Sequence record: PQ850612.1 | Source of the DNA: Escherichia phage KarinMuster_Bas82 | DNA length: 58,508 nt | Direction: 5' to 3' (one strand) | Part shown: one piece after another, positions 5,424 through 58,447 of the stretch | Position numbering within the stretch: the stretch's first letter is position 1 | Layout of the letters: every line of letters starts with the position of its first letter | Made by a program: the position numbers and the translations under genes | The notes under the pieces: model-generated | Told to the model about the DNA's origin: nothing | Databases searched by the model: none | What the model saw: the letters and a program-made list of their open reading frames with translations, nothing else

Positions 5424-5466
5424 AGCATAATCGCACGTTTGCAATCCGTCAAGAATTATTTTAACA
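5424..5466 (-). promoter_or_regulatory. conserved phage promoter (leftward)
   Basis: minus strand reads TTAAAATAATTCTTGACGGATTGC; -35 TTGACG, 17-bp spacer, -10 TATGCT. Confidence 0.6.
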
Positions 5467-5534
5467 CCGTGCAAAAAAACCATCACTGATATAACATACG
5501 TTAAGAACCGTAAACCGTATGGAGCCTGTAGAAC

Positions 5535-6890
5535 ATGGCTGATCAACAATTCGAACAACTAGCCGTTGCCGGGTACAGTCGAACAGGCAACCAGGTAAAC
5601 GACGATTTCCTTCCTAAACTAAACGGTAAACAAGGCCGTCGTATTCTTCGTCAGATGGCTGAGAACGATGAAACGATCGGTGGTGTACTGTTTGCCATGA
5701 GCAGTGTTTATCGTTCTGTGCAATGGCTTTTCGACCCATCTGACAAAGATGATCCAGAAGCTATCCGTTATTCAGAATGGTTACAGGATGCTATTGAAAA
5801 TAAAATGGGTGATCCGCGTGGTGCACTCCCGGATGATACCTGGTCCGCGTTCGTTCAGACATGGACAGACGTTGATGTATTCGGCTGGGGTTGGTATGAC
5901 ATCTGGGTCAAAGACCTTGATGACGGCACCGTGGGTATTGCCCGTCTGGTTCCTGTAGCACCTGAAACACTTGCTGGATGGGATATAGAAGAACCGACAG
6001 GTTATGTTCGTGGTATTTATCAACGTTCACCTAACCAGGGTACAACGACGTTAATCACTCGTGACCGTTCGCTTCATTTGATTTCAAGTCCGAATAAAGG
6101 TAACCCGGAAGGTTTATCACTGCTGCGCACAGCTTATCGTCCGTGGTACTACAAAAAAGTGAATATGGAAATCGAATCCATACTTGCCGAACGTGGTACA
6201 GGGTTCCCGGTAATTACTGTTAACGCAGATATTAAGAAAGCGGCTAATGACCCCAACGTTCCTGAACAACAACGTCAGGCAGCACAGGCGATGATTGATA
6301 ACTATGAAAACATCGTCGCTAATATCAAACGCAATGAACAATCAGGACTGGTGATTTATTCTAAACCGTATATCACGGGTTACGATAACGAAACAGGTGT
6401 TACCACGTATGGTGGTGAACAACAGGTGAAACTGGAATTCGTTACACCTAACCAGACCAGTTCCGTGGATATTGATCGGACGATTAAACGTCTGGATACC
6501 AGTATTGCTCGCGCGTTACTGGCAGATTTTATGTTTTTCGGAACGGGTGGTAATACCGGGAATAATGCTAACCTGGGTAGTCGTACTGAATTATGGATCC
6601 GCGCAATGCAATCACGTATTGATAGCATTGTAGAATGTGTTAACCGTCAGTTGATACCACAGTTATGGTCGTTAAACGCATTTCCTGATGAATACCGCCC
6701 GTCGATTCGCGCCGGGTCGATCAGTAAAGACAGTATCGAAACGTTGACCACTGCACTTGCACGACTTGCACAAGCTGGCGCACCTGTATTCCCGGATCCA
6801 GACCTTCAGGAATACGTGTATAAAGAGGCGGGTCTACCTATTACGGGGATTGATAAAGCCGGGGACGGATTACCGTCTATTGACGACTGA
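5535..6890 (+). CDS. portal protein (putative)
   Basis: 451-aa ORF, size and position in morphogenesis module; no diagnostic motif. Confidence 0.5.
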   Translation: MADQQFEQLAVAGYSRTGNQVNDDFLPKLNGKQGRRILRQMAENDETIGGVLFAMSSVYRSVQWLFDPSDKDDPEAIRYSEWLQDAIENKMGDPRGALPDDTWSAFVQTWTDVDVFGWGWYDIWVKDLDDGTVGIARLVPVAPETLAGWDIEEPTGYVRGIYQRSPNQGTTTLITRDRSLHLISSPNKGNPEGLSLLRTAYRPWYYKKVNMEIESILAERGTGFPVITVNADIKKAANDPNVPEQQRQAAQAMIDNYENIVANIKRNEQSGLVIYSKPYITGYDNETGVTTYGGEQQVKLEFVTPNQTSSVDIDRTIKRLDTSIARALLADFMFFGTGGNTGNNANLGSRTELWIRAMQSRIDSIVECVNRQLIPQLWSLNAFPDEYRPSIRAGSISKDSIETLTTALARLAQAGAPVFPDPDLQEYVYKEAGLPITGIDKAGDGLPSIDD

Positions 6891-6898
6891 ATGAAAAA

Positions 6899-6925
6899 GG
6901 GACCAGAAACGGTCCCTTAATTTTT
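6899..6925. terminator. bidirectional terminator between convergent genes
   Basis: GGGACC-agaaac-GGTCCC hairpin with T-rich flank. Confidence 0.6.
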
Positions 6926-7256
6926 ACTTAGTTTCAGGCTGCACGATTGACAGTAATTTACTCGCTTCATCAACCGCAGTCTGAATACGAGTCTGTAACG
7001 GATAACTGTTGTTGATCGCACGTTCCAGCGTTTTATCAAGCAATTGTAGTTTAACCTCATCATCGCCAGTGAACGCGTACATATCAGCAACGACTTCCTT
7101 AAACTGTGATGCTTGCTCAACAATAGTCGTGGTTACAATGTATTTCCAGACTTTGTTAAGTAGTTTAAATTTCACTTCGTTGTCAGCAACTGCATCAACC
7201 AGAATTTCAGCAGCAGTCTTGTCATATTTAACAAGCTCAAGAATTTCAAAACGCAT
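6924..7256 (-). CDS. hypothetical protein
   Basis: 110-aa ORF. Confidence 0.45.
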   Translation of the reverse strand: MRFEILELVKYDKTAAEILVDAVADNEVKFKLLNKVWKYIVTTTIVEQASQFKEVVADMYAFTGDDEVKLQLLDKTLERAINNSYPLQTRIQTAVDEASKLLSIVQPETK

Positions 7257-7271
7257 TTAAGTTTTCTCCTG

Positions 7272-7616
7272 TCAATTAACGTACTTCGCGATCAGTTTAT
7301 CACAGTCTTCGCGACAGGTAGCATACTTAAACAGGTCACTGGCTGCTTCTGCCCGGTAGTCAGTATCAATGGTGTAATGTTCATTAACATAGTTATAGGC
7401 TGCAAGGTAGTTACTGAACATCCCCGTGGTTACCACTTTCGGTTGTTCCCTTACGACCTTACCGTTAAACAGATATGCGATTAGCAAAATCAGACCACCG
7501 ATCACAGGACTTGTGAGAAATGCGATAAAGAACCATACACCAGGGTTACGACCTGTTTGTTTGGCAACACCCGCGACAACCAGACAGAAAAGAATCCATA
7601 AAATAATGAATAACAT
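7272..7616 (-). CDS. membrane protein
   Basis: 114-aa ORF, two N-terminal hydrophobic helices; downstream of conserved promoter. Confidence 0.5.
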   Translation of the reverse strand: MLFIILWILFCLVVAGVAKQTGRNPGVWFFIAFLTSPVIGGLILLIAYLFNGKVVREQPKVVTTGMFSNYLAAYNYVNEHYTIDTDYRAEAASDLFKYATCREDCDKLIAKYVN

Positions 7617-7646
7617 GATTATGTCCTCCTTTGTTTTGATGTTTGT

Positions 7647-7690
7647 AGGTTACACGTCCTTGTGTAATCCATCAAGAATTATTTTAAATT
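7647..7690 (-). promoter_or_regulatory. conserved phage promoter (leftward)
   Basis: TTAAAATAATTCTTGATGGATTAC; -10 TAACCT. Confidence 0.55.
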
Positions 7691-7936
7691 ATCATAGACG
7701 GGCGGTAAACCCATTGCGGCCTGTACAGACCGTTTTTCGTATTCCTCCCGAAGTTTCTGAAGCTGTTCAATACCGATGTCACAACCACGCATTATATCAG
7801 CGCACAGATCGTTGTAGGTCGCTTCAGATTGCTTGCTGTGTGGGTAATCAACACAGGACGGATCTGCAATAATGACTTTCGGCAGATACGCGACAGTATC
7901 GCCCATTGCGTTTTTAAATATCGTCATAGTTAGCAC
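7679..7936 (-). CDS. hypothetical protein
   Basis: 85-aa ORF. Confidence 0.4.
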   Translation of the reverse strand: MLTMTIFKNAMGDTVAYLPKVIIADPSCVDYPHSKQSEATYNDLCADIMRGCDIGIEQLQKLREEYEKRSVQAAMGLPPVYDNLK

Positions 7937-8409
7937 CCATGATTAAGTTCCTGACCTGGTTGAACACGAGTACCACAACATTTACAAACATAGCGCCACT
8001 CAAAACCGGGTTGTTCGTTGTAATTACGCCACCCTGCGTTATATAAAGCTGACGCAAGTTTAATATAAGATTCAGAACCTTTAGAATCACCATAATGACT
8101 AATTAAAACATAAACTAGGTTATCAATATCCTTTTCACGTTCTTTCGGAATAGGTCTGAAGTTTTCCGCGTTACCTACAATAAACGATTGTGTACCGTCA
8201 TCAGGCTTTAACCATGTATCATCACCATGATGACCTAATACCGTCACCTTTACCCAATCGTGATCAACGCTTGCTAACCACTCGCATACTGTACCGACAG
8301 GTGGTAAACCTTCACCATCCCATTGTTGTTTTTCATTCACATAGTCAGGACAAATACCATGTTTTTGATCACTGTTATCACGCATGTGTTTTTCACAAAA
8401 ACTTTTCAT
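7930..8409 (-). CDS. hypothetical protein
   Basis: 159-aa ORF. Confidence 0.5.
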   Translation of the reverse strand: MKSFCEKHMRDNSDQKHGICPDYVNEKQQWDGEGLPPVGTVCEWLASVDHDWVKVTVLGHHGDDTWLKPDDGTQSFIVGNAENFRPIPKEREKDIDNLVYVLISHYGDSKGSESYIKLASALYNAGWRNYNEQPGFEWRYVCKCCGTRVQPGQELNHGC

Positions 8410-8735
8410 AAATACGACCCCACAATTGCTGCACAGTTGACGATCGCTAAACGCGTTGCTTTTTCACGGTCTTCTCCGTGGCTAACTGGTTGCTTATAAT
8501 TAACGCCGGTGTCAGGGTTATTAACCGTCACTTCGTTGTCACGAACATCCAGATCCATGTACATGTTAACCATCAGACTGAAAGCATCCTCATTACGTGT
8601 AAGAGGGTTCCACAGGCGACCATTACCTATATCAATACCTTCGTTTATGTAACGTTCGTCGTACGCGACGTAATATTTACCCTGGATTTCAGCAGCCTTT
8701 GCTGCGTTAACTAATAAATCACGATTGTTCATCAC
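8406..8735 (-). CDS. hypothetical protein
   Basis: 109-aa ORF, overlapping stop/start. Confidence 0.5.
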   Translation of the reverse strand: MMNNRDLLVNAAKAAEIQGKYYVAYDERYINEGIDIGNGRLWNPLTRNEDAFSLMVNMYMDLDVRDNEVTVNNPDTGVNYKQPVSHGEDREKATRLAIVNCAAIVGSYL

Positions 8736-9395: not shown

Positions 9396-9430
9396 TGTTT
9401 GATTCCTCAGTGTGTTTCGTTCGTGACAAA

Positions 9431-9474
9431 TGTTAGTGTTACTGCTTGCAATGTGTCAAGAATTATTTTAAAAT
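9431..9474. promoter_or_regulatory. divergent promoter pair built on the conserved element
   Basis: leftward -35 TTGACA with -10 CTAACA; rightward -35 TTGCAA (9446-9451), 17-bp spacer, -10 TAAAAT. Confidence 0.55.
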
Positions 9475-9502
9475 TCTGTCAACGTTAACCAATGAGGAAC
9501 GA

Positions 9503-10725: not shown

Positions 10726-10752
10726 TTCCACGCCCGTAACACGTGATATAAT
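10726..10752 (+). promoter_or_regulatory. possible extended -10 promoter
   Basis: TTCCAC ... TGATATAAT immediately upstream of hairpin. Confidence 0.3.
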
Positions 10753-13402: not shown

Positions 13403-13446
13403 AAGATACCCTACCGTCTGTAATCCGTCAAGAATTATTTTAAAGA
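13403..13446 (-). promoter_or_regulatory. conserved phage promoter (leftward)
   Basis: TTTAAAATAATTCTTGACGGATTAC; -10 TATCTT. Confidence 0.6.
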
Positions 13447-13557
13447 TACAGCTAATACAGAACGTGTACTAACTGTACATGGTTTTACATAGGTTTCATG
13501 ATTTTGAGTTGCGGCTAATACTGAATCTGTATTAGTAGATCATAGATTCATAGATCG

Positions 13558-13660
13558 CGTCATGTTTATTTTTAACCGACCATTCTCTATCTTATTCTTT
13601 TTATTATCTTTTTATAGATAACATAGAAAACATAGATAAACAGAAGAGTAGTATAAGTAG
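13558..13660. repeat. AT-rich ~100-bp repeat, copy A
   Basis: about 90% identical to 53274-53375; shared core CTCTATCTTATTCTTTTTATTATCTTTTTATAGATAACATAGAAAACATAGATA. Confidence 0.8.
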
Positions 13661-13730
13661 TAAAAGTTGCTGCAAGTAGGAGAGGTTTAAAAGGTATAGG
13701 GAGTCGCATACTTCCCATGAATCTATACAT

Positions 13731-13769
13731 AAAATAATTCTTGACGGATTACACCGACACAACTACCCT
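13731..13769 (+). promoter_or_regulatory. conserved phage promoter (rightward)
   Basis: AAAATAATTCTTGACGGATTAC; -10 TACCCT. Confidence 0.55.
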
Positions 13770-13799: not shown

Positions 13800-14147
13800 A
13801 TGGATCCGAACATCAGAGTTGCTACAGACGAATTCATTCGTCGCGCCCGTAAAATTCATGGTGATCGTTACGACTACTCATTCAGCATTGTTGAAGATAG
13901 TTCCAGCACCGTGGTTATTATTGACCGTGAAACTAACACAGTGTTTTTCCAGGTTGTCGCTGAACATCTGGACGGTGTTGAACCAGTAACGACTGCTGTT
14001 GAACCAGTAACGACTGCTGTTGAACCGATCAATAATCTTTCTGAGACATTCTGTAACGTTGTAAACAGCGTGTATCACCAGTGCAATTATTCATCTGAAA
14101 TGTTAGAATTTAGTCATGTTGAAACAATACGAGGACAATCCCCGTGA
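13800..14147 (+). CDS. hypothetical protein with T5orf172-repeat-like motif
   Basis: start moved to ATG at 13800 (SD AAGGG); EFIRRARKIHGDRYDYS resembles repeats of the 22440-23354 protein. Confidence 0.45.
   Translation: MDPNIRVATDEFIRRARKIHGDRYDYSFSIVEDSSSTVVIIDRETNTVFFQVVAEHLDGVEPVTTAVEPVTTAVEPINNLSETFCNVVNSVYHQCNYSSEMLEFSHVETIRGQSP
13978..14031 (+). repeat. 21-bp in-frame tandem duplication
   Basis: GTTGAACCAGTAACGACTGCT x2 plus partial third copy. Confidence 0.7.
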
Positions 14148-21618: not shown

Positions 21619-21660
21619 AAGATACCTTAACAGGTGTAATTCGTCAAGAATTATTTTAAA
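21619..21660 (-). promoter_or_regulatory. conserved phage promoter (leftward)
   Basis: TTTAAAATAATTCTTGACGAATTAC; -10 TATCTT. Confidence 0.55.
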
Positions 21661-22147: not shown

Positions 22148-22443
22148 TTGACTTCCTCTTGTGGAACGAGCGGACAGACGGGGATGACCTGGACTGGGTT
22201 GCACAAGGGGCGGCTGCACGTGGTATATCTGTTCCGGTTGTTGTACGGAAACGTCCTGAATTGCGACCTGATGCTATCTTTTACTGGAATGCTTTTTTGG
22301 ATTTGATAGGTGCTGATTGGGTTGCTTGTGAGCGTTATGCACGGGTGTATAACGTTGATGTACAATTCCTATGGAAATTATTGGTAGCATTGCGGTCTGC
22401 ACGTGTTGTCGAGATGAAGAAAAATAAACATAAGCCCGGTTAG
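21725..22443 (+). CDS. tail assembly chaperone frameshift-extended form
   Basis: fusion ...EWEKQIEKN-LIDFLLWNERTDGDD... by -1 shift. Confidence 0.55.
22138..22144 (+). other. -1 programmed frameshift site A_AAA_AAC
   Basis: heptamer ends 1 nt before stop; -1 frame open for 94 further codons to 22443 and lacks its own ATG/SD. Confidence 0.6.
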
Positions 22444-22457
22444 TTCCGGGCTTTTTC
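22433..22457. terminator. hairpin terminator between convergent genes
   Basis: AGCCCGG-ttagtt-CCGGGCT then TTTTT. Confidence 0.55.
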
Positions 22458-23354
22458 ATTTATGTAGTCGAGGATTGCAGGAGAGTATTTAAACCACTCT
22501 GTAGCACCGTCAAAGCCTTTGAGACGCGCATTAAGTTCACGGAAGACCTTGTGTACCTCTTGTTCCAGTTTGTAAGCATCAGCGCCGTGTGGAAACGGGT
22601 ATGACACGAGTTTAACCACTGGGTGTGTTGTTTCGCGTTGTAGTTGTCGTAGTCGCCGTTTTAAGTCGTTTGTGATACCGACTTTAAGCAGAGTAGGGCA
22701 CTTTTTATCGTCAGCTAACACGTAGAGTGTACCGGGTTCTGACGGGTTAAAACCTGTTTGTGAACACTGAGGACAACCATGTTTTTTATGCAAATGCATG
22801 GCTGGACGTTGTTCAAACACTCCATGCTCTGGACAGATGATTTTTATTCGAGTGAAATTGTTAATATACGCCACCAACGAATAGTCGTAACGGTCCCCAT
22901 GAACTTCGCGAGCACGAGTAATGAAATCTTCGGCGCCTAAGCGTTTTTGTTCAGACGACTGTTTACGAGCACATTGTGGGCAACCTTTCCCGTGAACATG
23001 ATTGCCCGGTGTCTGTTCAAACACACCATGTATCGGACAGATAATCTTCACAGGTGTGCACCAATTCACATACTCCACCAGCGAATAGTCATACTTGTCC
23101 CCATGAACTTCACGAGCACGAGTGATAAACTCTCCTGTGGTTAAACGTTTTTGTTCAACAGTACATTGGGTACAACCTGCTTTCATTGAAGTGTGATTGT
23201 TCGGAGTCTGTTCAAATACCCCGTGTTCGGGGCAGATAATTTTTACTTTGGTGTTAGCACCTTCATACTCCACCAGCGAATAGTCATACTTGTCACCATG
23301 AACTTCACGGGCACGCGTGATAAACTCTTCTGTGGTTAAACGTTTCCTACTCAT
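22440..23354 (-). CDS. T5orf172/GIY-YIG-like domain protein with three N-terminal repeats
   Basis: 304 aa; three ~60-aa repeats (EFITRAREVHGDKYDYSLVEY...CPxHGVFEQ...C.QC); C-terminal GTLYVLADDKK...LLKVGITNDLKRRLRQL. Confidence 0.6.
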   Translation of the reverse strand: MSRKRLTTEEFITRAREVHGDKYDYSLVEYEGANTKVKIICPEHGVFEQTPNNHTSMKAGCTQCTVEQKRLTTGEFITRAREVHGDKYDYSLVEYVNWCTPVKIICPIHGVFEQTPGNHVHGKGCPQCARKQSSEQKRLGAEDFITRAREVHGDRYDYSLVAYINNFTRIKIICPEHGVFEQRPAMHLHKKHGCPQCSQTGFNPSEPGTLYVLADDKKCPTLLKVGITNDLKRRLRQLQRETTHPVVKLVSYPFPHGADAYKLEQEVHKVFRELNARLKGFDGATEWFKYSPAILDYINEKARN

Positions 23355-23565: not shown

Positions 23566-23607
23566 AGGTTACACGTCCTTGTGTAATCCGTCAAGAATTA
23601 TTTTAAA
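23566..23607 (-). promoter_or_regulatory. conserved phage promoter (leftward)
   Basis: TTTAAAATAATTCTTGACGGATTAC; -10 TAACCT. Confidence 0.55.
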
Positions 23608-23669
23608 CGTTTGTTGCTTTTTAGACCCGTGTTAAACTGTGTATATGCTTCGTGAAAAGGTTAACCACA

Positions 23670-30674: not shown

Positions 30675-32618
30675 TCACATCTGAATCCATGTGTTCCCAT
30701 CAAACATAAAGCCAACCTTATCACCGCCAGCTAACACCTTTGGAGTATTCCCTGTTGTAACGATATGACCGGCAGTAGAAGGCGTTATTGTTAGGTTTTG
30801 CCAGGAGGTGGCGTTTTGTATCCATAATGTATATCCTTCAGGTATTACCGAACCATTGACGGCTGTTGTGTTTATGGTAGCTATCTCAGCTGCCCCTGAC
30901 GGAAGCGTTAGCTTCATGAATGATGAGTTTGTCTGGCTGTATCTTACCGAAAGCACTCCAGAAACACCGCTTGCATCCTGTGTTGCATATCCGGGTCGCG
31001 GAGCGCCGCTTCCGTATATCGCAGCGCGAACATTACTGATGCTGTTCTTGTCAAAAGCGTTGTTAAAAGTCACTCCAGCCTGAGTGACCAGGTCATAGTT
31101 CAAAGTTGGTGTGATATTAACAAGATTTGAAACATTGACTAATGGTCCTATCTTTATAGAGTCATTAACGTGGGTTGATTCGCTAGTAATCCGCCCGTTC
31201 ACATTAGATATATTCAGCAAATTAGCCGCCTGTGCGTCAATAATTTGCCCAGTAACTTCGCCAGCTGAAATATTTGATATGTTTGCGGTGTATATTTTAT
31301 CGACTGCATTAGCCACCAGTGCCAATGACGCTATTGACGCTCCAGAGCTTGCCAGATTGTTAATGTTAATTTCATTGATGACGCCAGTATCAGACTGCAC
31401 CACCATGTCGTATTTGCATCCAGACGTTACAATATTCGATACATTAACCTTCTGTAGTTGAGCGTCTTGCGCAAAAACCCACAAGCCAATATTGCAGTTT
31501 TCATTTCCATCAATGGTAATATTGGTAATATTAGAGAAACTGGCATCACCAAATGCACTATCAGATTTAACAATAACACCTGTGTTTGAGTTTCTGGATA
31601 TTATATTATTCGTGATTGAATAACCACTTTTGTGCGCGAGGCTATATGTATTCTGTATGCCTATGCAATCTTCAATAATTGAATATTTATAACCTTCACA
31701 CAGAATAGAGTGAAATGCATCGGTTGGATTTCGTCCCAGCCCAATGCAGTTTCTTATAACGCAATACTGCCCTGATTTTTCAGGAGCTGAGACGGTGAGA
31801 GCATCACCAGCTGTCGATGGGAACCGGAACGAACCATGATCGACTCCAATATTGCTGATTTGTACGTTTTTGCCGCTAAATCTGAGCGTACCGACGATAA
31901 TGCTGCCATCAAGAAGACGTGTTAGCAATGAATCTGCATAGGGCCGCTTATCGCCAATGATGGTCACATTATCGTATGGTATAGCGTCGCCATTCCAAAC
32001 ATATGTTTTGCATGGAATTCTAAGTGGCAGTCCGTTGGCCGAGGCCCACGAAAGAGCATCTAATATGGCATTGGTGTCATCTGTACTTCCATCACCTTTT
32101 GCGCCAAAGTCATCAGGCGTCTTGTACCCCATTTTGAGGATATCAAACTCTGCCTGTACGGTCCTGCCGGATGTTGTACCAACTAGACCTGCGCCTGTGG
32201 TTAGGGCCAAGTCACTTCTCAATGAAGCATCACCAACACTAACCCACGCTCCTAATTTAACCTCCCCTGTGCTATCTGGAGTTGAGCCGGCTGGAACGAT
32301 TTTTGGAAACCCCCCGTCCCATCGGTAATATTCTCCTGTCGACTTATATCGCAACACCTGGTTAGGCAATGTTAATGTCGCGCCATCTTCGAAGCTATCC
32401 ATTGTGATATAGCCAACCTGAGATATAGCCTGATTGTACAGGTTTTCTAAACCATCAAGCGTCTTGTTGGTAACTGATTGATCACGGATCGTATCGGTAA
32501 CATCCAACGCATGATTACCGTTAGCATCACGACTTTTCGCAACGTGTTCAATATGTAAAATCGCTTGTTTGCCTGTTTTCAAATCATCAGCACTGATATA
32601 ATCGTTACAGTTAGCCAT
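30675..32618 (-). CDS. tail fibre / tailspike with pectate-lyase-3-like beta-helix
   Basis: start at MANCNDY (SD GGAG); FGAKGDGSTDDTNAI motif and repetitive beta-helix-like body. Confidence 0.7.
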   Translation of the reverse strand: MANCNDYISADDLKTGKQAILHIEHVAKSRDANGNHALDVTDTIRDQSVTNKTLDGLENLYNQAISQVGYITMDSFEDGATLTLPNQVLRYKSTGEYYRWDGGFPKIVPAGSTPDSTGEVKLGAWVSVGDASLRSDLALTTGAGLVGTTSGRTVQAEFDILKMGYKTPDDFGAKGDGSTDDTNAILDALSWASANGLPLRIPCKTYVWNGDAIPYDNVTIIGDKRPYADSLLTRLLDGSIIVGTLRFSGKNVQISNIGVDHGSFRFPSTAGDALTVSAPEKSGQYCVIRNCIGLGRNPTDAFHSILCEGYKYSIIEDCIGIQNTYSLAHKSGYSITNNIISRNSNTGVIVKSDSAFGDASFSNITNITIDGNENCNIGLWVFAQDAQLQKVNVSNIVTSGCKYDMVVQSDTGVINEININNLASSGASIASLALVANAVDKIYTANISNISAGEVTGQIIDAQAANLLNISNVNGRITSESTHVNDSIKIGPLVNVSNLVNITPTLNYDLVTQAGVTFNNAFDKNSISNVRAAIYGSGAPRPGYATQDASGVSGVLSVRYSQTNSSFMKLTLPSGAAEIATINTTAVNGSVIPEGYTLWIQNATSWQNLTITPSTAGHIVTTGNTPKVLAGGDKVGFMFDGNTWIQM

Positions 32619-35974: not shown

Positions 35975-36013
35975 TGTTATCGCCTCAATAAGTTTTAAAT
36001 AATTCTATACGGT

Positions 36014-37870
36014 TTACCGAAGTGGTGCAACGAGTTTTTCAGCTTCTTTGATGTAAAAATCATAATTGAGCGTTGCCCGGTTAAAACGTTTCATGTCGTT
36101 GCACTCAGTGGTCAACCAACCTTTACACACTGACATGCGGCGTTCAGGCGCATCAGGGTTCAGTTTCAGTGATTTTGCCAGCGGTGGCATGACTTTTGTC
36201 AACGGTGCACCATCTGTACTGACGTAATAACGGGTAATGTTTTGAACCTGTTTATCACCCCATAGTAATTTGCTGTTACGCGGTACTTTCGTCACCAACA
36301 TAAAATCGTGAATGTCTTCGTGTGATGTTATAAAATCACGAATGTCTTTATTGTGTACCAGTGCTGCTTCAGCCGCTTTTGCGACAACCTGCATGCTGTG
36401 GTTTTGATGCCAACCCAGATCAACGCTGTGACAATAAGCGCCTTTACGTTTAACTTTCTTACCGCCTTCATAAACAGCGATGTAATTATTTACATCGCGG
36501 ATAAACATCACGTCATAAATCGCTTCTTCAAGCTGGAGTTTAGTTAATTTTTCCCACGCGTGACGAACCTGTTCTACTTGTCCGGTAAATACTCGTGGTA
36601 CGTAAACTGTAAGACCATCTGTGTTAGCCTGGATCATGGATAAACCAGGGATTTTCAGAAGTTCTTCAGCCAACATGCACAAAAGTAACTGTCCGTTAAT
36701 CGTAATAGCCATTGTATAAGCAGGATCGTAGAATGGGCTGTATACGTTATTACTGTCACCATACACACCGTTTAACGCCAGTTTTAACATTGCGTTTTCT
36801 GGTGTACCTTTCGGGTAACTGGAACGCATGTCATAAACATTTTTATAAATGGTGCAAAATTGTTTACCCAGATGTGCCGGATAAAGTTCATTACTGATCG
36901 CAAGGTTCGGGTAAAAACTGGCAACGTCCAGATCGATGATCACATAATTTTCAGTGGATCTTATAGTTTGAGATTCAATAGACCCGTGGATACCACCCGT
37001 ACCAAAATCAAACGAGAACCCGTTAATGTCTGCACTTAAATCTGTAAATACACCTTTTGTTTCAGTGATGACCTGCTGACGTAACCAGTTAAGAACACGA
37101 TTAAATTCAGGCTGTTCAAAACGGACATAAGGGAAAATCACGCTGTTTAATGCGATTGATAGTCTGTGCGTCTGTCGTGGTTTTCTACTACCCGGTTCGA
37201 AACATTGAATACCTGATTTTTCAAGTTCCATGATGAAATAGTCTTTACCGATTTTCGTGTCATTATGGTTCATGAAATTACGACCGTATTTAGCAGAAAG
37301 TTCACGACGAAAATCGATCAGCTTTTTACTGTGTTTATAAAACATCAAAGTCGCTTTTAAATCGTGTATCAGATATTGACGAAGCGTATCAATTTGAGAA
37401 TCGGTTAAGTAAGTCCCTGGCGTAAATGGGAGGTCTTCAATGTTTTCCATTCTCATATTGAATTCAAGTGTTTTCAGACTTGTTCGTTTTGCCTGATTGT
37501 CGAAATGATGAATTTTATACAAATCAAGCTGGGGGACTATCCAGTCTTTTTCCCACACCATATGAGCAAAACGATTTTCATCACCGGCGTTAATTATCGA
37601 ATCGCCTTTTTTGTAAATGTCTGCGTTGGTGATATACATGATGTTGTTCAAAATAGAATGCTGAACAGGATAGTCGTAACCCAGATTGTTATAACCAACT
37701 TCTTCAGCACGATGTTCACGCAAATATTCCGTGAAGAAGTAAAAAGCCTGACGATCATCGCGACGATGTGAAATCTCAAAAATATAAGGCGTTTCAGTTA
37801 ACGCGTGAATAGCACCGAACAGGAAAACATTAGGATAGTTTTCAATATCATGAACGTAAGCATCTAACAT
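36014..37870 (-). CDS. DNA polymerase, compact family-B-like
   Basis: 618 aa; Exo I-like VHDIEN, motif A-like DLDVASFYPNL, motif B-like KLALNGVYG, motif C-like ANTDG. Confidence 0.65.
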   Translation of the reverse strand: MLDAYVHDIENYPNVFLFGAIHALTETPYIFEISHRRDDRQAFYFFTEYLREHRAEEVGYNNLGYDYPVQHSILNNIMYITNADIYKKGDSIINAGDENRFAHMVWEKDWIVPQLDLYKIHHFDNQAKRTSLKTLEFNMRMENIEDLPFTPGTYLTDSQIDTLRQYLIHDLKATLMFYKHSKKLIDFRRELSAKYGRNFMNHNDTKIGKDYFIMELEKSGIQCFEPGSRKPRQTHRLSIALNSVIFPYVRFEQPEFNRVLNWLRQQVITETKGVFTDLSADINGFSFDFGTGGIHGSIESQTIRSTENYVIIDLDVASFYPNLAISNELYPAHLGKQFCTIYKNVYDMRSSYPKGTPENAMLKLALNGVYGDSNNVYSPFYDPAYTMAITINGQLLLCMLAEELLKIPGLSMIQANTDGLTVYVPRVFTGQVEQVRHAWEKLTKLQLEEAIYDVMFIRDVNNYIAVYEGGKKVKRKGAYCHSVDLGWHQNHSMQVVAKAAEAALVHNKDIRDFITSHEDIHDFMLVTKVPRNSKLLWGDKQVQNITRYYVSTDGAPLTKVMPPLAKSLKLNPDAPERRMSVCKGWLTTECNDMKRFNRATLNYDFYIKEAEKLVAPLR

Positions 37871-38997: not shown

Positions 38998-40143
38998 TTA
39001 AAGTGGACGTGCGCCAGTCGGCATCGTCACGGGTTTATTAAAAACAGATTCTGCCAGTGTGCTGTGACCTTTACGCGGGTCACTGTCAGGTACTAAAACT
39101 GGCTGACCTTCTGGTTTTGTCGTACACATGTCAACAAGTGCCGGAGGCAGTGATTTTTCCAGTGTTGACAACGGTTTTAATTTACGTTCGTACAATGTTT
39201 CAGGGTTTACACCAAACATGGGTGCAGCACCGATCAGTTTTCCTTCGTCCGTAAGCTGACGTCGGGTTTGCTTTGTTGCAAGTTTAAAACCCGGTAAAGC
39301 CTTACCCATGCGAACAAAATGTAACCCCTGAGTATGTAACGCTGTTTTTGCTTCAGAAGAACGTGTATACAATTCTTCAAGAAGTGCCAGACGACGCGCT
39401 ACTTCTTCTGGCGTAAGTGATGGTGGTGCATCAAGAACAGTAGCCAATTCTAAAACCCTCTCATACATCGCCGGACACATACCACGCGCCGGACAGTAAT
39501 GACAATGACTACCAACATTTAACGGTGCGTCTGGTTTATGTGCTTCGTTAAACCCGTGTTTAAATCGTTCAGCCCATTCCATCAATGTTGCCCGGTTAAA
39601 CTCCCATCGTCTTACAGGTCCGAGTGGGTGATAAGCCCGTGGCTGAACAATTGTGAACACAACACGCTTAACGGTGTCGATGCAACGTTGGTCCAGTGCG
39701 TAATAGACCCCCTGTGAGTTATCAACTGCTTCAACTGCGACATGACCGTATTTATAATCCCATACGTAAAGCGTATCAGTATTAAAGTCATACCAGCAAT
39801 AATCACAGGTTCCATACTGACCGGGTAACAACCAGTCAATGTAAATGCGAACTTCTGAAAACAGCGGATCGAGTTTCGCACCAACTGAAAGAACATCTGT
39901 TATAAAGTCATCCGCGTAAACATGCATGTCTTCAGTAACCTGAACACCGTTAGGAGCAAGACACGGCATTAATGGCGGTTTGCCTTTAATCTTCTGTTCT
40001 AACACCCAGTGTCCGGCTGTACCTTCTTCAGCACTGGGTGATGATGGTTCTACATAATCAATCCGCTGTGACAGTTGAACGCTACCCGGACAAGCTAACC
40101 AACGTTTTGATCCACTGGCACTAAAGGTAGCGTGACTGGTCAT
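38998..40143 (-). CDS. PD-(D/E)XK exonuclease, Cas4/DUF2800-like
   Basis: 381 aa; N-terminal SGSKRWLACPGS and C-terminal Cys cluster CHYCPARGMCPA. Confidence 0.6.
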   Translation of the reverse strand: MTSHATFSASGSKRWLACPGSVQLSQRIDYVEPSSPSAEEGTAGHWVLEQKIKGKPPLMPCLAPNGVQVTEDMHVYADDFITDVLSVGAKLDPLFSEVRIYIDWLLPGQYGTCDYCWYDFNTDTLYVWDYKYGHVAVEAVDNSQGVYYALDQRCIDTVKRVVFTIVQPRAYHPLGPVRRWEFNRATLMEWAERFKHGFNEAHKPDAPLNVGSHCHYCPARGMCPAMYERVLELATVLDAPPSLTPEEVARRLALLEELYTRSSEAKTALHTQGLHFVRMGKALPGFKLATKQTRRQLTDEGKLIGAAPMFGVNPETLYERKLKPLSTLEKSLPPALVDMCTTKPEGQPVLVPDSDPRKGHSTLAESVFNKPVTMPTGARPL

Positions 40144-40944: not shown

Positions 40945-40987
40945 AACTTTAAAAGGTATTGTGTAATCTGTCAAGAATTATTTTACA
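40945..40987 (-). promoter_or_regulatory. conserved phage promoter (leftward)
   Basis: AAAATAATTCTTGACAGATTAC; -10 TAAAGT. Confidence 0.55.
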
Positions 40988-41007: not shown

Positions 41008-41051
41008 ATGTTAGAGGAATAAGTTGCAATACGTCAAGAACTATTTTAAAC
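41008..41051. promoter_or_regulatory. divergent promoter pair built on a variant element
   Basis: leftward TTGACG with -10 CTAACA; rightward TTGCAA (41023-41028), 17-bp spacer, TAAACT. Confidence 0.5.
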
Positions 41052-41083
41052 TTTTTTCACGATTCGATATTACAGGGTAGAAA

Positions 41084-42745: not shown

Positions 42746-42786
42746 TGGTAATCTGCATAGAAATATTTTAAACGTAAGGAACTGTA

Positions 42787-43293: not shown

Positions 43294-43781
43294 CAACGCT
43301 TGAACAATGGGCGATTCGTCACGGTGTTAGTCAGATGGCGTTGTACGAGTTATACGCGCTTTATCAGCCTGACGGAACACCACACGAAGACGGTGTAAGT
43401 GAAAGCGCCACCAGTAAAGAGTGTGAACTGATTGCGGCACGTGCAGGGCAACGTATCTGGCGTAATAACTCAGGTGCTCTGAAAAACGAAAAAGGAATGA
43501 TGGTTCGTTATGGTCTTGGCAATACCAGTGCGAAAATTAACGCTGTTATGAAGTCAAGCGACTACATCGGCATTAAAACCAAAATCGTTACACCGGATAT
43601 GATCGGTTCGAAAGTGGGTGTCTTTATTGCTGCCGAAATGAAACGCCCTGACTGGCACATGATCCCCAGTGATAAACGTGCACAAGCACAGGCCACTTTC
43701 GGTGCGATTGTTGAAAACGCAGGTGGTGAATTTCGTTTCATCACTCATCCTTCACAATTTGAAAAATGGATTAAACAATGA
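43290..43781 (+). CDS. VRR-NUC-like nuclease (putative)
   Basis: 163 aa; SDYIGI ... FIAAEMK resembles PD-(D/E)XK core. Confidence 0.45.
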   Translation: MTTLEQWAIRHGVSQMALYELYALYQPDGTPHEDGVSESATSKECELIAARAGQRIWRNNSGALKNEKGMMVRYGLGNTSAKINAVMKSSDYIGIKTKIVTPDMIGSKVGVFIAAEMKRPDWHMIPSDKRAQAQATFGAIVENAGGEFRFITHPSQFEKWIKQ

Positions 43782-43951
43782 ATACTGAACGCATTGAACG
43801 TCTACAAAAACTGATTGATAACCACGGTATTGAAGCTGTTGCTAAACGTCTGAACGTTACTGAAATTCATGTTAAACGTAATCTGCTTACCGGGCGATCT
43901 GCTATCAACCTGGTCAAACTGATGGCTGCTGAACGTCAGTTCGGAGCGTAA
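43778..43951 (+). CDS. small hypothetical protein
   Basis: 57-aa ORF with overlapping start; below ORF-track cutoff. Confidence 0.4.
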   Translation: MNTERIERLQKLIDNHGIEAVAKRLNVTEIHVKRNLLTGRSAINLVKLMAAERQFGA

Positions 43952-46309: not shown

Positions 46310-46328
46310 TCATTGCACAAGGATGTGT

Positions 46329-46368
46329 AAAATAATTCTTGACGAATTACAGAGGTGTGCGCTATAGT
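46329..46368 (+). promoter_or_regulatory. conserved phage promoter (rightward)
   Basis: AAAATAATTCTTGACGAATTAC; 18-bp spacer; -10 TATAGT. Confidence 0.6.
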
Positions 46369-47709: not shown

Positions 47710-48101
47710 TAATCGTCGTCACAGGTGGTCGTGACTTCAACGACAGAGTAGCAGTATTTTCCGCGTTAGGACTACTTCACAAACAATTCCCCATTACCGA
47801 ACTAATTGAAGGTGGTGCGTCAGGTGTTGATAACCTGTGTAAGCAATGGGCGCAGTTACACAGTATTCCTGTGCGTAGTTGCCCGGCAGCGTGGGACGAT
47901 CTGACTGTACCTGGTGCGGTTGTAAAACAGGGCAAGCACGGGCCTTATAACGCTGTTGCAGGTCATCAACGTAATCAGGCGATGTTAGAGGGTGAGCCAC
48001 GCCCTACATATGGTGTTGTGTTCCCCGGTGGGCGTGGTACTGCTGATATGCATCGTCGCATGTTGAAAGCTGGTTTAACTGTGTGGGTTCCATATCCTTA
48101 A
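47706..48101 (+). CDS. SLOG-type Rossmann protein (DprA/Smf- or DUF2493-like)
   Basis: 131 aa; VVTGGRDF and EGGASGVD motifs. Confidence 0.45.
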   Translation: MIIVVTGGRDFNDRVAVFSALGLLHKQFPITELIEGGASGVDNLCKQWAQLHSIPVRSCPAAWDDLTVPGAVVKQGKHGPYNAVAGHQRNQAMLEGEPRPTYGVVFPGGRGTADMHRRMLKAGLTVWVPYP

Positions 48102-48137
48102 AATAATTCTTGACAGATTACCAACCATCCCCGATAA
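48101..48137 (+). promoter_or_regulatory. conserved phage promoter (rightward)
   Basis: AAAATAATTCTTGACAGATTAC; 17-bp spacer; -10 GATAAT. Confidence 0.65.
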
Positions 48138-48172
48138 TTAGCCTCAGTTAACACACATGAGGCTAAACACAA

Positions 48173-52245: not shown

Positions 52246-52251
52246 CAAAAA

Positions 52252-52278
52252 GCGGGGTAATCATCCCCGCTATCTTTA
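52252..52278. terminator. bidirectional terminator
   Basis: GCGGGG-taatcat-CCCCGC with T-rich flanks. Confidence 0.6.
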
Positions 52279-53260: not shown

Positions 53261-53273
53261 AACATAGATTTCG

Positions 53274-54777: not shown

Positions 54778-54824
54778 AATTTACACATCCTTGTGCAATC
54801 CGTCAAGAATTATTTTAAATAAAA
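54778..54824 (-). promoter_or_regulatory. conserved phage promoter (leftward)
   Basis: TTTAAAATAATTCTTGACGGATTGC; -10 TAAATT. Confidence 0.55.
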
Positions 54825-54843
54825 CCCCGGTTAGTTCCGGGGT
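54824..54843 (-). terminator. terminator hairpin
   Basis: CCCCGG-aactaa-CCGGGG then TTTTATTT on minus strand; same loop as the 22433 hairpin. Confidence 0.5.
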
Positions 54844-54851
54844 AATGTTCA

Positions 54852-55187
54852 TTATTCGCCCAACGCTTCTTTCAACAACCGATACGTTTCAGGACATTTA
54901 CCGGATCCGCGTTCACGTTCATAAGCTGCGCTAATAACATCCCAGTTTTCAATCACGCCTTTAAACGCCGGACACTTTTCAGCAATCAATGGAAAACTGT
55001 TTCTGATTTCCGGTACAGCTTCAATCAGGAACCAGCAACGGCGAAAATCAGCAACATCCCGTGGCGCACGAAATCCCCATTCACCATCCATTTCGTTACC
55101 TGTGTGAATGCAGACCATCGTTTTAGAACTCAGACCAGTTTCACCAGAGCATAACCACTGAATAATACGTTCCTGTTCTGTTTTCAT
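54852..55187 (-). CDS. hypothetical protein
   Basis: 111-aa ORF overlapping rdgC stop. Confidence 0.5.
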
Positions 55188-56101
55188 CGTTTAGCCTCCC
55201 CACCCAAAGCAGTGATAAGTTGTTTAATCAGCATTGAAAGTTCACCTGTCATCAGTACAAAATCAGCGTCGAATCGTGCCAGAACATCTTCACGATTCAT
55301 GTCGTCATTCTGTAACACCAGTTCGTCACAGAATTTCACACGGTTTAACGCCGTGCTGTCAGTTAGCGTAAACGTTACCCGCTGCTGCCAGTCCATCGCC
55401 AGCTTTGTAACGAATTTCCCGGCTTCAATATGTGTGGCTATTTCATCACTGGTTAAATCCTGTTTTTTAACGCGTGCAACACCGCCATCAGTCAGGTTCG
55501 CTTTCAGTTCCGCAGAATCACCCATCGCGAAATAATCGCCAGGGACTTTACCGAGTTTTACCCACTCCGTTGTTGTCAGTTCAACAGGGTTTTCCATCGT
55601 CAGCGGGACGACTGGCAAACTACCCAGGGATTTACGCAACAGTGCTAATGCATCTTCAGCCCGTTTAGCACTGGGCGCATCAACCACAATCAACCCGTTA
55701 GTGATGTCGATCCACAACTGTGTACGACTGTTTTTAACGAATGCGCGTGGTAACAGGCTGTGCAATACTTCATCTTTCAACGCGTCTTTCTCAGTCTTTT
55801 TCAGGCGACGACCCTGTTCCGTTTCCAGTTTAGTGATACGTGCGTTCAGATGCTGTTTAATGACCGGACCCGGAATAATCTTTTCCTGTTTCTGGATGGT
55901 CAGCAGATATTGCCCATTAGCCTGGTGAACCAGCGTATGATGTTGTTCAGTTGCCGGAATCCATCCAGTACGCGCCATATCCTGTGAACCACATGGATTG
56001 AATTGAAACGCATACAGGCTGTCTTCCAGTGTTGGTAACTGGGCCATTAATTGCATCGGGTTAGTCAGACGATAAATGATTGCGTTTTTAAAGAAGTTCA
56101 T
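55184..56101 (-). CDS. rdgC: recombination-associated protein RdgC homolog
   Basis: 305 aa; [36 protein letters not shown] and [16 protein letters not shown] closely resemble enterobacterial RdgC (from memory). Confidence 0.75.
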
Positions 56102-56331
56102 AATTCAATGTCCTGTTTTATTCGTGAATGAAGTAATCAACCGTTTTGGTTTACTTTTCATATAATTAACCAAAGCATTTCATTTCCTGTTCCTTCTTTT
56201 CTTCGCCTCGCGTCGGGCTTTTGCAATACCTGTTTTACGATGTGGTTGTTTACGATCAGTAATAATTCCTTGTGTTGGAACACCCCACAACGTGTTAGTG
56301 GAACTTAACAATTTAATCGCGTAATCAAGAA

Positions 56332-56598
56332 TCATACGTTCACCACTTTTAAATCAGGTGTCAGGCTACGATGGTCATGATGACCGTTCATGGTAAATGA
56401 GAAAGTGTAATCGCACTGCTCACCATCGAACGTGAAGGGGATTTGAAACCCTGTATCGTCAGTGATGCGAACTTTAACCGGGTATTCAGCTTGCGGATCG
56501 ACCGCTACAACAGTGCCGAATGGCTGAGATTTGCGACGTGCGAGAATTTCTAACAATCGTGGACTGGTGATTTCTACGTGTTGACCAGTTTTAAACAT
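56332..56598 (-). CDS. hypothetical protein
   Basis: start at MFKTGQHV with SD GGAG. Confidence 0.5.
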   Translation of the reverse strand: MFKTGQHVEITSPRLLEILARRKSQPFGTVVAVDPQAEYPVKVRITDDTGFQIPFTFDGEQCDYTFSFTMNGHHDHRSLTPDLKVVNV

Positions 56599-56630
56599 GG
56601 TGATAACTCCAGTTGTTTTACACAAACTGA

Positions 56631-56674
56631 AGTCTATCTGATAATGTGTAAGCCGTCAAGAATTATTTTAAACC
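56631..56674 (-). promoter_or_regulatory. conserved phage promoter (leftward)
   Basis: TTTAAAATAATTCTTGACGGCTTAC; -10 TAGACT. Confidence 0.55.
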
Positions 56675-56849
56675 GTCCATCACTGTCTGCAGCGTAACAA
56701 ATACCGTGACTGTAGATTGTCGCAGTTCGTGTAATGCGTTGATAGTCTGAGCATTGGTTACGAACACGCAGGTCATACCCGGATTGTACGATCAGCCAGG
56801 TTGCAATGATGGCGAGTAATTTTAAAACGTATCTGAACATGTTCCACAC
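56634..56849 (-). CDS. small membrane-anchored protein
   Basis: 71 aa; hydrophobic N-terminus; overlaps promoter element. Confidence 0.35.
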   Translation of the reverse strand: MWNMFRYVLKLLAIIATWLIVQSGYDLRVRNQCSDYQRITRTATIYSHGICYAADSDGRFKIILDGLHIIR

Positions 56850-56911
56850 TCCTGTTTGATAGTTTCAGGGTAGTGTGGAACTGGCGAAGATGGTATAGGA
56901 TTTACGATAAT

Positions 56912-57334
56912 TTAACAGGGGTTTCGACTGGCATAAAACTTTGTACCGACTGGCATACGTTCCATGTTGAGTTTTCCGCGCAGGTGTTTGTATGTTTCAC
57001 CGGGAGAACGTAGTTCTGCTTCACACGGTCTTTCAACAATTTCACCCACGGGATCACCTAACGCGCCTTTCCATCCTTCCCACATTGCGCACATGGTGAT
57101 AAACCAGACACTACCTAAACTGGCTTTCTTGTTCTCCCAGAACCAGTCGATGAACTCTATCGACATTCCATGTTGTTTTGCAATTTCGTAACGGTCATCC
57201 ACTTTTTTAACCCTCCACCCATATTTAGCACGATTCATAGCGGTCCGTTCATCATTCGTGGTGAACAGTACGCGCCCGGATTTATGACAAATGTTCCACA
57301 TTATAACTACCGCCTGAATAGTGATGTTTACCAC
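56912..57334 (-). CDS. hypothetical protein
   Basis: 140-aa ORF; start uncertain. Confidence 0.4.
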   Translation of the reverse strand: MVNITIQAVVIMWNICHKSGRVLFTTNDERTAMNRAKYGWRVKKVDDRYEIAKQHGMSIEFIDWFWENKKASLGSVWFITMCAMWEGWKGALGDPVGEIVERPCEAELRSPGETYKHLRGKLNMERMPVGTKFYASRNPC

Positions 57335-57342
57335 ACAACGAT

Positions 57343-58193
57343 CTACTTACACGTTTCACACTTGGCCCCTTCAGCCTTGTCTATTCCACACTGCAAATAT
57401 TCATTTTCTTTTTGTTCTAATGTTTTTCCACGACACAAACCAACAGTGGTACTTTCTGGTGTCATTTTATATTTCTGATAGTTTGCTTCCAGTTGTCGAA
57501 CACGGTGATAGTGTGCCGGATACATTGTGCGTAACATGTGGATTTCACCACCTGTCAAATGAGGGCAACATATACAACTTGATTTACCAGGATAATACAA
57601 ACCAACTTCTTCAACTGCGTCAGACTCTTTTTCACCAATATCCCAGTCAAATAATGGGAATACCTGACACCATTTATCTTCTGGTTGCCACTTGGCAGCC
57701 CGGTTTGGTTCATCAGCGTTAATACCAACAATACGTAAAATCGTACCCGTGTGACTGGACAATGGACGACCTTTACCGTTGACACCCCATGCTTTCCAGG
57801 CTTTGGGGTGGTTGTTGAAATATTTATCAGCAGTTTCTTTTTTAAAACGTAAGCTACATGATTTAGAACCGAAAGCAGCAGCCGGGAGATCGTTAGCTGC
57901 TTCTGCCGTACCAATTACGCTTAATGGAAAACCGTATTTATCTTTCTTATTGAGTATTACAACTTTCGACCAGTTGCGGTCAGCGCACCATTTTTTAAAT
58001 GTTCTATGAACTTATAGGTGTGAGGAAATTCTGAACCCGTATCACAGAAAACGATTTCGTCAGGTTCAAATCCGCGTTTATACAGTTCTGCAATTAACAT
58101 TGCTGTGTCATCACCCATACCGCCCATAACTACACGAAAACTGGTGCTTATCCACGCGAGTTCGATAGGTGGGCGATTGTTGAAAAGTATCAT
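57343..58193 (-). CDS. PAPS reductase-like protein split by a -1 frame change
   Basis: N-terminal frame 58193-57957: VVMGGMGDDTAM and FCDTGSEFPHTYKF; body in -1 frame, open from about 58008 with no start codon until TTG at 57762; frames overlap at A6 run 57996-57991. Confidence 0.55.
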
Positions 58194-58403
58194 TAGAAGT
58201 AGCTCCCAGTAGACTTTACATCATCAACATTCTGTAAACCGTTAGTGACTGTTGCAACTATACGATGAAGTTTATGGTTCATTTACCGACTGATTTTAGA
58301 TCCAACATATATACCTGCGAACATGGTTAAAGCACCCATGATAAAGCCTATTACAAACGTATATTCTTCCACGATTCACTACTCCTGTTCATTTGATAAC
58401 CAG

Positions 58404-58447
58404 ATTCTAGTTGTTCATCTGTAATCTGTCAAGAATTATTTTAAACC
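58404..58447 (-). promoter_or_regulatory. conserved phage promoter (leftward)
   Basis: TTTAAAATAATTCTTGACAGATTAC; -10 TAGAAT. Confidence 0.6.

Follow-up and report, generated by a model that had tools for sequence, protein, structure and literature searches.

A 27-base block repeated across the genome of Escherichia phage KarinMuster_Bas82 is probably the upstream half of a standard sigma70 promoter

The window analyzed here is a stretch of 58,508 nt from Escherichia phage KarinMuster_Bas82 (PQ850612.1), whose first gene encodes the large terminase (TerL). It contains 14 near-identical copies of a 27-base block, TTTAAAATAATTCTTGAC-RR-ATTRCA, against 0.02 expected, and this block is probably the upstream half of the standard promoter of the phage lineage for host sigma70 RNA polymerase. 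A first-pass annotation of the window had proposed a repeated promoter element. The finding is real, and the promoter class belongs to a known kind and is well conserved; conservation in excess of what the known polymerase contacts account for gives it modest interest. An 8-kb segment of the window shares 97% identity with Escherichia phage vB_EcoS_AVIO78A (AVIO78A) and other Nonanavirus/Sashavirus phages, about 85% with Salmonella phage 9NA and about 77% with a Klebsiella phage group. By these identities the window phage is a 9NA-like siphophage, and the BASEL collection paper lists KarinMuster (Bas82) as a Nonanavirus.

Scanning with the 22-mer AAAATAATTCTTGACRRATTAC, allowing up to three mismatches and using shuffled sequence as background, gave 14 matches (11 on the − strand, 3 on the +; Table 1), compared with a mean of 0.02 and a maximum of 1 in shuffles. 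All copy coordinates of the first-pass annotation proved correct within a few bases. With a weight matrix spanning −48 to −22 relative to the predicted transcription start site (TSS), the 14 copies score 38–46 bits and shuffled sequence at most 11; the best matches below them score 19.3 (35993, +), 17.8 (42772, −), 9.3 and 9.0 (1795, +). The last of these had been listed as a degenerate copy at 1803. At 9 bits it is weak and within reach of shuffles, and its context makes it real: its position 3′ of the TerL terminator and a 9NA counterpart (5833, +) nearer the consensus are the whole of the case for it.

Aligned on the −35 hexamer, the copies are near-invariant from −46 to −23 and fall to background level at −49 and −20, so that the conservation reaches past the −35 into the A/T tract and the first spacer bases, as had been noticed at the outset. 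The edges of the block are sharp, at −48 and −22. AAAA at −45 to −42 is invariant, T is preferred at −48 and −47, and purines are preferred at −30, −29 and −25. The −35 hexamer reads TTGAC in 13 copies and TTGAT in one, with G or A as its sixth base. An imperfect dyad, TAATTC-N5-GRATTA, lies inside the block with its centre at −33.

A TAnnnT −10 hexamer follows 17–18 bp past the −35 in 13 of the 14 copies (p = 5e-15), the 14th carrying GATAAT. These hexamers match TATAAT at 3–5 of 6 positions; they do vary, as first described, within the TAnnnT frame. The TG at −15/−14 of an extended −10 (TGn) is not present in the block promoters. Thirteen copies are followed by a Shine-Dalgarno sequence and, 22–29 nt past the predicted TSS, by a start codon; at the copy at 58421 the start codon is the GTG at 58372, 25 nt past the TSS, and the other 12 of these 13 gene-proximal copies likewise fall at 22–29 nt. 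A set of 176 distinct copies from relatives (IMG/VR and GenBank), chosen on −45 to −24 only, revealed T−12 in 62%, A−11 in 75% and T−7 in 75%, all positions outside the selection, together with a C−1/A+1 preference, an A-rich leader and a G-rich Shine-Dalgarno position. The canonical −35, the TAnnnT at 17–18 bp, the C−1/A+1 preference and the spacing to the Shine-Dalgarno sequence and start codon strongly support promoter identity.

The leaders of the 13 copies (about +1 to +25) are 22–29 nt long, A/C-rich and G/T-poor, and often read CATCAAnTGAACA followed by GGAG. They form a second, weakly conserved block between TSS and Shine-Dalgarno sequence, found in relatives too.

The same features bear on an alternative reading, in which a sigma factor or RNA polymerase specified by the phage recognizes the block, or the block is not a promoter and serves, for instance, in replication or packaging. 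The very high information of the block resembles that of phage-polymerase promoters, and most early open reading frames (ORFs) have no known function. Against this stand the canonical −35, the TAnnnT at 17–18 bp and the C/A start signal; moreover, every copy aims at a gene start at a fixed distance, and neither a survey of ORF sizes nor Pfam and PHROGs scans covering about 70 ORFs revealed one that resembles a polymerase or sigma factor. We regard this reading as barely credible. Consensus sites of host factors were also compared with the block, informally and by eye; none of IHF, Fis, CRP, DnaA, sigma32, sigmaE, sigma28 or sigma54 fits.

A motif scan of related phage genomes, the check suggested by the first-pass annotation, found the block in 9NA (at least nine copies), AVIO78A, Klebsiella phage Carvaje and related viral contigs of 58–61 kb (7–11 exact copies each). 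It is the most repeated 12-mer family in AVIO78A and Carvaje, and relatives from Salmonella, E. coli and Klebsiella preserve its register. At seven orthologous loci of the window, 9NA and Carvaje, identity is 90% in the block and 69–72% in the flanks. Differences between orthologous copies occur at positions that are variable within a genome, and track the locus, not the genome. The versions in Proteus phage Isfahan (TTTAAAATATAGCTTGACAGATTAC) and Morganella phage Henu15 (TTTCAAAATATCGCTTGACAGATTGG) define a deep core, AAAATAnnnCTTGACAGATT, kept in these relatives at about 60% identity of the portal protein. A distant Vibrio relative has a different version, TTGACA-nnn-GTAAC. Together, these results show the anatomy, copy number and position before genes of the element and, across phage genera, purifying selection on it. 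In 185,579 bacterial genomes scanned, the block was not enriched (35 scattered single matches); a host regulon element was rejected, as the scan revealed no enterobacterial cluster.

In the Isfahan record (NC_041925, flagged UNVERIFIED_ORG), the most repeated sequence is a 21-bp tandem repeat, TGTAACAGGTGCTTGTGACTG, at 1–70, 13560–13640 and 39200–39265. It was considered as a promoter and rejected as an artefact: one array adjoins Alu-like human sequence, and the tandem repeats are probably an assembly artefact.

The sequence TTTAAA at −48 to −43 has the same register as in the rrnB P1 UP element (the rrnB P1 sequence used occurs in each of 5,426 E. coli genomes, and one record that was inspected has it between murI and the 16S rRNA gene rrsB). 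The invariant AAAA lies where the A-tract of a proximal UP subsite is expected, near −46 to −38, and TTC before TTGAC fits the old extended consensus tcTTGACat. On the strength of this A-tract register and of TTC-TTGAC, the best-supported reading of the block is recruitment mainly via alpha and sigma region 4, the −10s being weak. The UP-like T/A-tract in the proximal position, TTTAAAATA (−48 to −40), would presumably be bound by the alpha subunit C-terminal domain, and an extended −35, TTC-TTGAC-R (−38 to −30), by sigma region 4. The conserved element at the start of the spacer, R-ATT-R-CA (−29 to −23), matches no polymerase contact known to us. The weak TAnnnT −10, 17–18 bp past the −35, would direct a C/A start about 7 nt later, followed by the 22–29-nt A/C-rich leader, the Shine-Dalgarno sequence and the first gene. 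Upstream contacts would make up for the weak −10s, and the 14 promoters would thereby be uniformly strong on entry and switchable together, driving what are presumably the early and DNA-metabolism units. Near-identity beyond the known contacts would reflect either a further protein reading the block or as yet undescribed sequence requirements on the side of the polymerase. The first-pass annotation had suggested either an UP-element-dependent class or a factor-binding site overlapping the −35: the register of TTTAAA agrees with the former, the lack of a conserved distal subsite does not, and the role of alpha is a prediction.

Several observations weigh against the best-supported reading. The block holds about 39 bits of information where about 13 suffice to select 14 sites in 58.5 kb (about 19 would be enough to pick them against the host genome). 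To our knowledge, none of the established sequence-specific polymerase contacts falls in −29 to −23, and sigma70 and alpha contacts account for the invariance neither there nor at −41 to −36. Between lineages, all copies change together at −39 to −37 (ATT, TAG or TCG), which polymerase contacts alone do not predict. The UP likeness concerns the proximal subsite only, information being about zero from −49 to −60, across most of the distal subsite (−57 to −47). Because the head operon too is under a block copy, the label "early", which rests on gene content, does not apply cleanly. The literature searched, outside which lies Zeng et al. 2019 (J Virol) on 9NA-like phages, contained neither transcript 5′ ends nor in vitro data for the phage group, and no match to the string ATAATTCTTGAC.

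The 39 bits against 13, and the lack of a polymerase contact in −29 to −23, make a second reader such as a phage factor a live possibility. The block could also be the site of a phage-encoded repressor or co-activator overlapping the −35 and the first spacer bases, which we consider possible though somewhat short of probable. Such a regulator is compatible with promoter function, to which it would add a layer, and its specificity would explain the surplus information. It would fit the sharp edges, the identity of orthologous copies while their flanks drift, and the deep conservation of GATT at −28 to −25 while −39 to −37 shifts by lineage in all copies. Two conserved relics (Table 1) keep the block flanks and have lost TTGAC, although these can be explained as −10 elements of the opposite strand. 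The imperfect dyad would also suit a bound protein, but it is lost in the Proteus and Morganella versions (TATAGC...AGATTA), and a palindromic operator, TAATTC-N5-GAATTA, was downgraded for that reason. The Pfam and PHROGs search of about 70 ORFs for a regulator returned only NinH, a ParB-helix-turn-helix (ParB-HTH) protein and a T5orf172 protein, none of them in all relatives; NinH and the ParB-HTH protein are missing from some relatives with the motif. Sequence searches of the PDB with three conserved proteins of unknown function gave no match.

All enteric relatives have a 57-aa basic ORF that in the window (43778–43951, +) immediately precedes the P4-type primase gene. The predicted structure of the 57-aa protein has four helices (mean predicted local distance difference test score 83), and nearly all of its 50 best PDB matches are HTH proteins of the XRE/Cro type, with weak scores (E 0.5–3, template modelling score about 0.6). 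Its fixed place before the primase gene suggests a replication role instead. Nothing links this Cro-like protein to the block, and it is a candidate regulator only, as judged from a predicted fold.

The near-identity might alternatively be mainly history: a cassette duplicated together with small "moron-like" gene modules, its copies kept alike by recombination and per-base selection playing a minor part. The copies at 7664, 23583 and 54795 also share the spacer and −10 (ACAAGGAyGTGTAA), and the first two share the leader too; the copy at 40963 is an extra tandem copy missing in 9NA and Carvaje, where the single copy corresponds to 41026, and the copy at 13731 is likewise missing there. The hairpins at 22432–22453 and 54824–54843 are alike. 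Mosaic breakpoints against AVIO78A, 9NA and Carvaje are often at copies, with BLAST breakpoints within 60 nt of several, although intergenic regions would be expected to show such breakpoints anyway. The lineage-specific −39 to −37 positions across all copies point the same way, and the PeSL promoter-terminator cassettes of T4-like phages provide a precedent (PMC2839356, PMC4122927). However, the similarity of most copy pairs ends abruptly at −48 and −22, where conversion tracts would end less sharply, and the block has stayed constant while divergence took the flanks to about 70% identity. An adjacent stem-loop is found at about 1–3 copies only. The variable block positions follow the locus, not the genome, across three genera, so homogenisation cannot be frequent. 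History as the main cause is unlikely. Because the block edges are sharp and the variants locus-specific, we argue that duplication and exchange contribute to the identity of the copies and are not its main cause.

Conservation on both sides of the −35 could also arise from two overlapping divergent promoters, the complement of GATTRCA serving as a −35 and the A/T tract containing a −10. The two rightward promoters with TTGCAA that the first-pass annotation described are present at 9446–9474 and 41024–41052 (Table 1). They lie 22–26 nt before the start codons of rightward genes and have counterparts in 9NA, and six of the 11 leftward copies adjoin a rightward gene. However, eight of the 14 copies lack a gene on the opposite side and are equally conserved; the implied −10 lacks its final T at 5441, 21636, 23583 and 58421 (TAACAC, TAAATA, TAAACG and TAAACC), and the late genes at those four loci have better TGn-type −10s about 25 bp further on, most of them kept in relatives. 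The description of the element as often a compact divergent pair was therefore overstated. As a general cause of the conservation, overlapping divergent promoters are very unlikely and were rejected, the TTGCAA-type partner being found at two of 14 copies.

The two relics are similar on their complementary strands. The complement of the relic at 35993 reads TAGAAT followed by TATTTTAAA, and provides the −10 of TTGCAC-17-TAGAAT (36030–36002), just before the next gene, which from its sequence is a plausible internal promoter. The relic at 42746–42772 reads, on the coding strand, TAGAAA (TAGAAT in relatives), again followed by TATTTTAAA and again shortly before the next gene.

TGn-type −10 candidates without a −35 precede virion and lysis genes (Table 1). 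Most are kept in 9NA and Carvaje; the tape measure locus keeps the TAAACT hexamer only, with no TG. Seven occurrences of GTGATATACT are present in the Vibrio relative, most of them immediately 5′ of rightward genes. The short patterns AACTGTACAGAAC and CTGATATAAT show no genome-wide enrichment, so the case for a second promoter class consists of position and conservation in relatives. The virion and lysis genes appear, on this reading of the sequence, to use separate promoters without a −35. At three back-to-back pairs, the A/T tract ends about 25–26 bp upstream of the late −10, where an UP element would lie, and predicted early and late start sites at such loci are about 85–87 bp apart. A more elaborate possibility, which we consider quite unlikely, is that the block is a composite site, read by host polymerase and a phage protein, with all 14 promoters switching in concert; the A/T tract would also, at the TerL, portal, tape measure and perhaps tail chaperone loci, be the upstream element of the late promoter on the other strand. 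Two polymerases would then compete for one A/T tract, giving a compact early/late toggle repeated around the genome.

Table 1 Block copies, related sites and candidate late −10 elements in the window (block promoters given as −35, spacer, −10; TSS, predicted).
Feature	Coordinates	Strand	22-mer match	Sequence	TSS	Gene start and context
Copy 1	5424–5465	−	5441	TTGACG, 17 bp, TATGCT (5424–5429); block 5439–5465	~5417	5392; string of small ORFs, 5392 to 4008
Copy 2	7647–7688	−	7664	TTGATG, 17 bp, TAACCT	~7640	7616; within leftward gene string
Copy 3	9430–9472	−	9448	TTGACA, 18 bp, TAACAT	~9423	9395; 55-aa ORF, dUTPase, others
Copy 4	13403–13444	−	13420	TTGACG, 17 bp, TATCTT	~13396	13374
Copy 5	13728–13769	+	13731	TTGACG, 17 bp, TACCCT	~13776	13800
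Copy 6	21619–21660	−	21636	TTGACG, 17 bp, TATCTT	~21612	21586
Copy 7	23566–23607	−	23583	TTGACG, 17 bp, TAACCT	~23559	23535; 59-aa membrane ORF and T5orf172 gene; terminator 22432–22453
Copy 8	40946–40987	−	40963	TTGACA, 17 bp, TAAAGT	~40939	40913
Copy 9	41008–41050	−	41026	TTGACG, 18 bp, TAACAT		Tandem promoter, 63 bp upstream of copy 8
Copy 10	46326–46368	+	46329	TTGACG, 18 bp, TATAGT	~46375	46400; just 3′ of primase gene
Copy 11	48097–48138	+	48100	TTGACA, 17 bp, GATAAT	~48145	48173; string of small genes up to terminator 52251–52271
Copy 12	54778–54819	−	54795	TTGACG, 17 bp, TAAATT	~54771	54742; adjoins hairpin 54824–54843
Copy 13	56631–56672	−	56648	TTGACG, 17 bp, TAGACT	~56624	56598; within string including RdgC
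Copy 14	58404–58445	−	58421	TTGACA, 17 bp, TAGAAT	~58397	58372 (GTG); 29-aa membrane peptide
Diverged 15th copy	1795–1821	+		TTCTTTTTAATTCTTGACAAATTACAT; without good −10		Directly 3′ of TerL terminator 1773–1790
Rightward partner	9446–9474	+		TTGCAA-17-TAAAAT		9503; operon with NinH and head morphogenesis protein
Rightward partner	41024–41052	+		TTGCAA-17-TAAACT; 9NA counterpart TTGCAA-18-TATGAT		41084; helicase
Inverted relic	35993–36019	+		TTGAC replaced by TATAC		Gap between DNA polymerase gene and next leftward gene; kept in 9NA and Carvaje
Inverted relic	42746–42772	−		TTGAC replaced by TATGC (TAAAC in relatives)		41-nt gap, helicase/exonuclease genes; kept in 9NA and Carvaje
Late −10 candidate	58468–58477			GTGGTAAACT; TGn-type, without −35		TerL
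Late −10 candidate	5486–5495			CTGATATAAC; TGn-type, without −35		Portal
Late −10 candidate	23629–23638			GTGTTAAACT; TGn-type, without −35		Tape measure
Late −10 candidate	10743–10752			GTGATATAAT; TGn-type, without −35		Head morphogenesis
Late −10 candidate	32593–32602			CTGATATAAT; TGn-type, without −35		Holin
Late −10 candidate	14101–14109			TGTTAGAAT; TGn-type, without −35		Among sites before virion and lysis genes

The block copies head all strings of non-structural genes in the window. The claim that each copy heads a transcription unit requires a qualification; the copy at 41026 is the tandem partner of 40963, and those at 7664 and 56648 lie inside co-directional strings. Genes in these strings encode small unknown and membrane proteins, dUTPase, RdgC and the T5orf172 protein, and the copy at 40963 precedes the leftward replication operon (DUF2800 protein, Gp2.5-like single-stranded DNA-binding protein, DNA polymerase). 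Two rightward gene strings under block copies both lie downstream of the primase gene. Downstream of the copy at 13731 come a small ORF and then the protease, scaffold and major capsid operon; before this head operon, 9NA and Carvaje lack a block copy and carry ATGATATTAT instead. The virulent phage 9NA contains many small novel genes dispersed among its virion genes (PMC4153490), and the AVIO78A annotation has leftward strings of small genes between the rightward terminase, portal, head and tail genes. Such dispersal of opposite-strand small genes among virion genes is an unusual property of 9NA-like phages.

Other features were observed near the copies. An AT-rich non-coding gap of 290 bp (13445–13727), with the short direct repeats CATAGAT and ATAGATAA, separates two divergent copies; 9NA, Isfahan, Henu15 and the Vibrio relative have a long repeat-rich gap at this point in front of the head operon, and the gap may be an origin or a regulator array. 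Between the tail chaperone and tape measure genes, the T5orf172/DUF723 gene (22440–23354, −), of homing-endonuclease type, forms an insertion with its own block promoter and terminator, and similar genes occur elsewhere in the genomes of relatives. The bidirectional terminator hairpins at 22432–22453 and 54824–54843, the second adjoining the copy at 54795, have a common core, CCGGAACTAACCGG. Adjacent ORFs at 57957–58193 and 57343–57762 (−) match phrog_424 (PAPS-reductase-like) at profile positions 163–212 and 269–390, which points to a gene that was split or has decayed. TGTACA, a palindrome that frequently takes the form CTGTACAG, occurs at 7722, 13474, 21675 and 58477, 65–85 bp upstream of four copies, out of 15 sites genome-wide (p = 2.5e-4). 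At the TerL and tail chaperone genes the palindrome comes immediately after the candidate late −10 and is kept in relatives.

In the public records examined, the block is not annotated as a promoter class: AVIO78A marks a few copies as generic sigma70 matches, and the GenBank record of Sasha has terminators and ribosome-binding sites annotated and no promoters. The block class and the likely late class together provide a first map of the transcription programme, with 13 precise start-site predictions. Since Bas82 can be grown on a K-12 derivative of E. coli whose O-antigen has been restored, these predictions, and the reader of −29 to −23, are directly testable. A further possible use of the block is as a strong, compact promoter part.

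Among known systems, the early promoters of T4, with their "uber" UP/−35/TGn/−10 architecture (PMC2988021), are similar in being many strong sigma70 copies in a virulent phage, with an UP-like A/T tract, a consensus −35, extra consensus positions and early-type genes. They contain "additional regions of consensus" beyond sigma70 and UP elements, whose meaning is not established (PMC2988021), a precedent for the extra consensus in the block. Unlike them, the block promoters have no TGn and a weak, variable −10, and their conservation is near-invariant and confined to −48 to −22, with the proximal UP subsite only. The E. coli rrnB P1 UP element shares the T-tract/A-tract junction and its register, with 12 nt (AATTATTTTAAA) in common with the complement of the phage block. 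Unlike rrnB P1, the block has no distal subsite; the likeness is one of A/T-rich sequence, and alpha binding is predicted. In PeSL cassettes of T4-like phages (PMC2839356, PMC4122927), repeated early promoters likewise flank variable small genes among core genes, and mosaic breakpoints in the 9NA-like group often fall at block copies. Most block copies, however, have no adjacent stem-loop, the exceptions being 54795 and the diverged 1795 (hairpin 1773–1790); the conserved unit is the upstream promoter half only, and a recombination role of the block is putative. T4 middle (MotA-box) promoters have an activator box centred on −30 in place of the −35; the block, in contrast, has the canonical TTGAC and no TGCTTtA-like element.

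The repressor sites ("stoperators") of mycobacteriophage L5 overlap a −35. They are asymmetric, comprise TTGAC and adjacent bases, and are numerous per genome and oriented with transcription, all as in the block. Unlike stoperators, the block sites are nearly all true promoters and are not inside transcribed regions, and the 9NA-like group is virulent (PMC4153490). No repressor was found by the Pfam and PHROGs scans. In Thermus phage P23-45, −35-dependent promoters are turned off and extended −10 promoters are active. T4 AsiA likewise shuts off −35-dependent promoters while TGn extended −10 promoters stay active, an established means of switching between classes of this sort (PMC2988021). The scans found no AsiA- or gp39-like factor among the ORFs; the likeness to these systems lies in the two apparent promoter classes, one −35/UP-dependent and serving non-structural genes, the other TGn-type without a −35 and serving virion and lysis genes.

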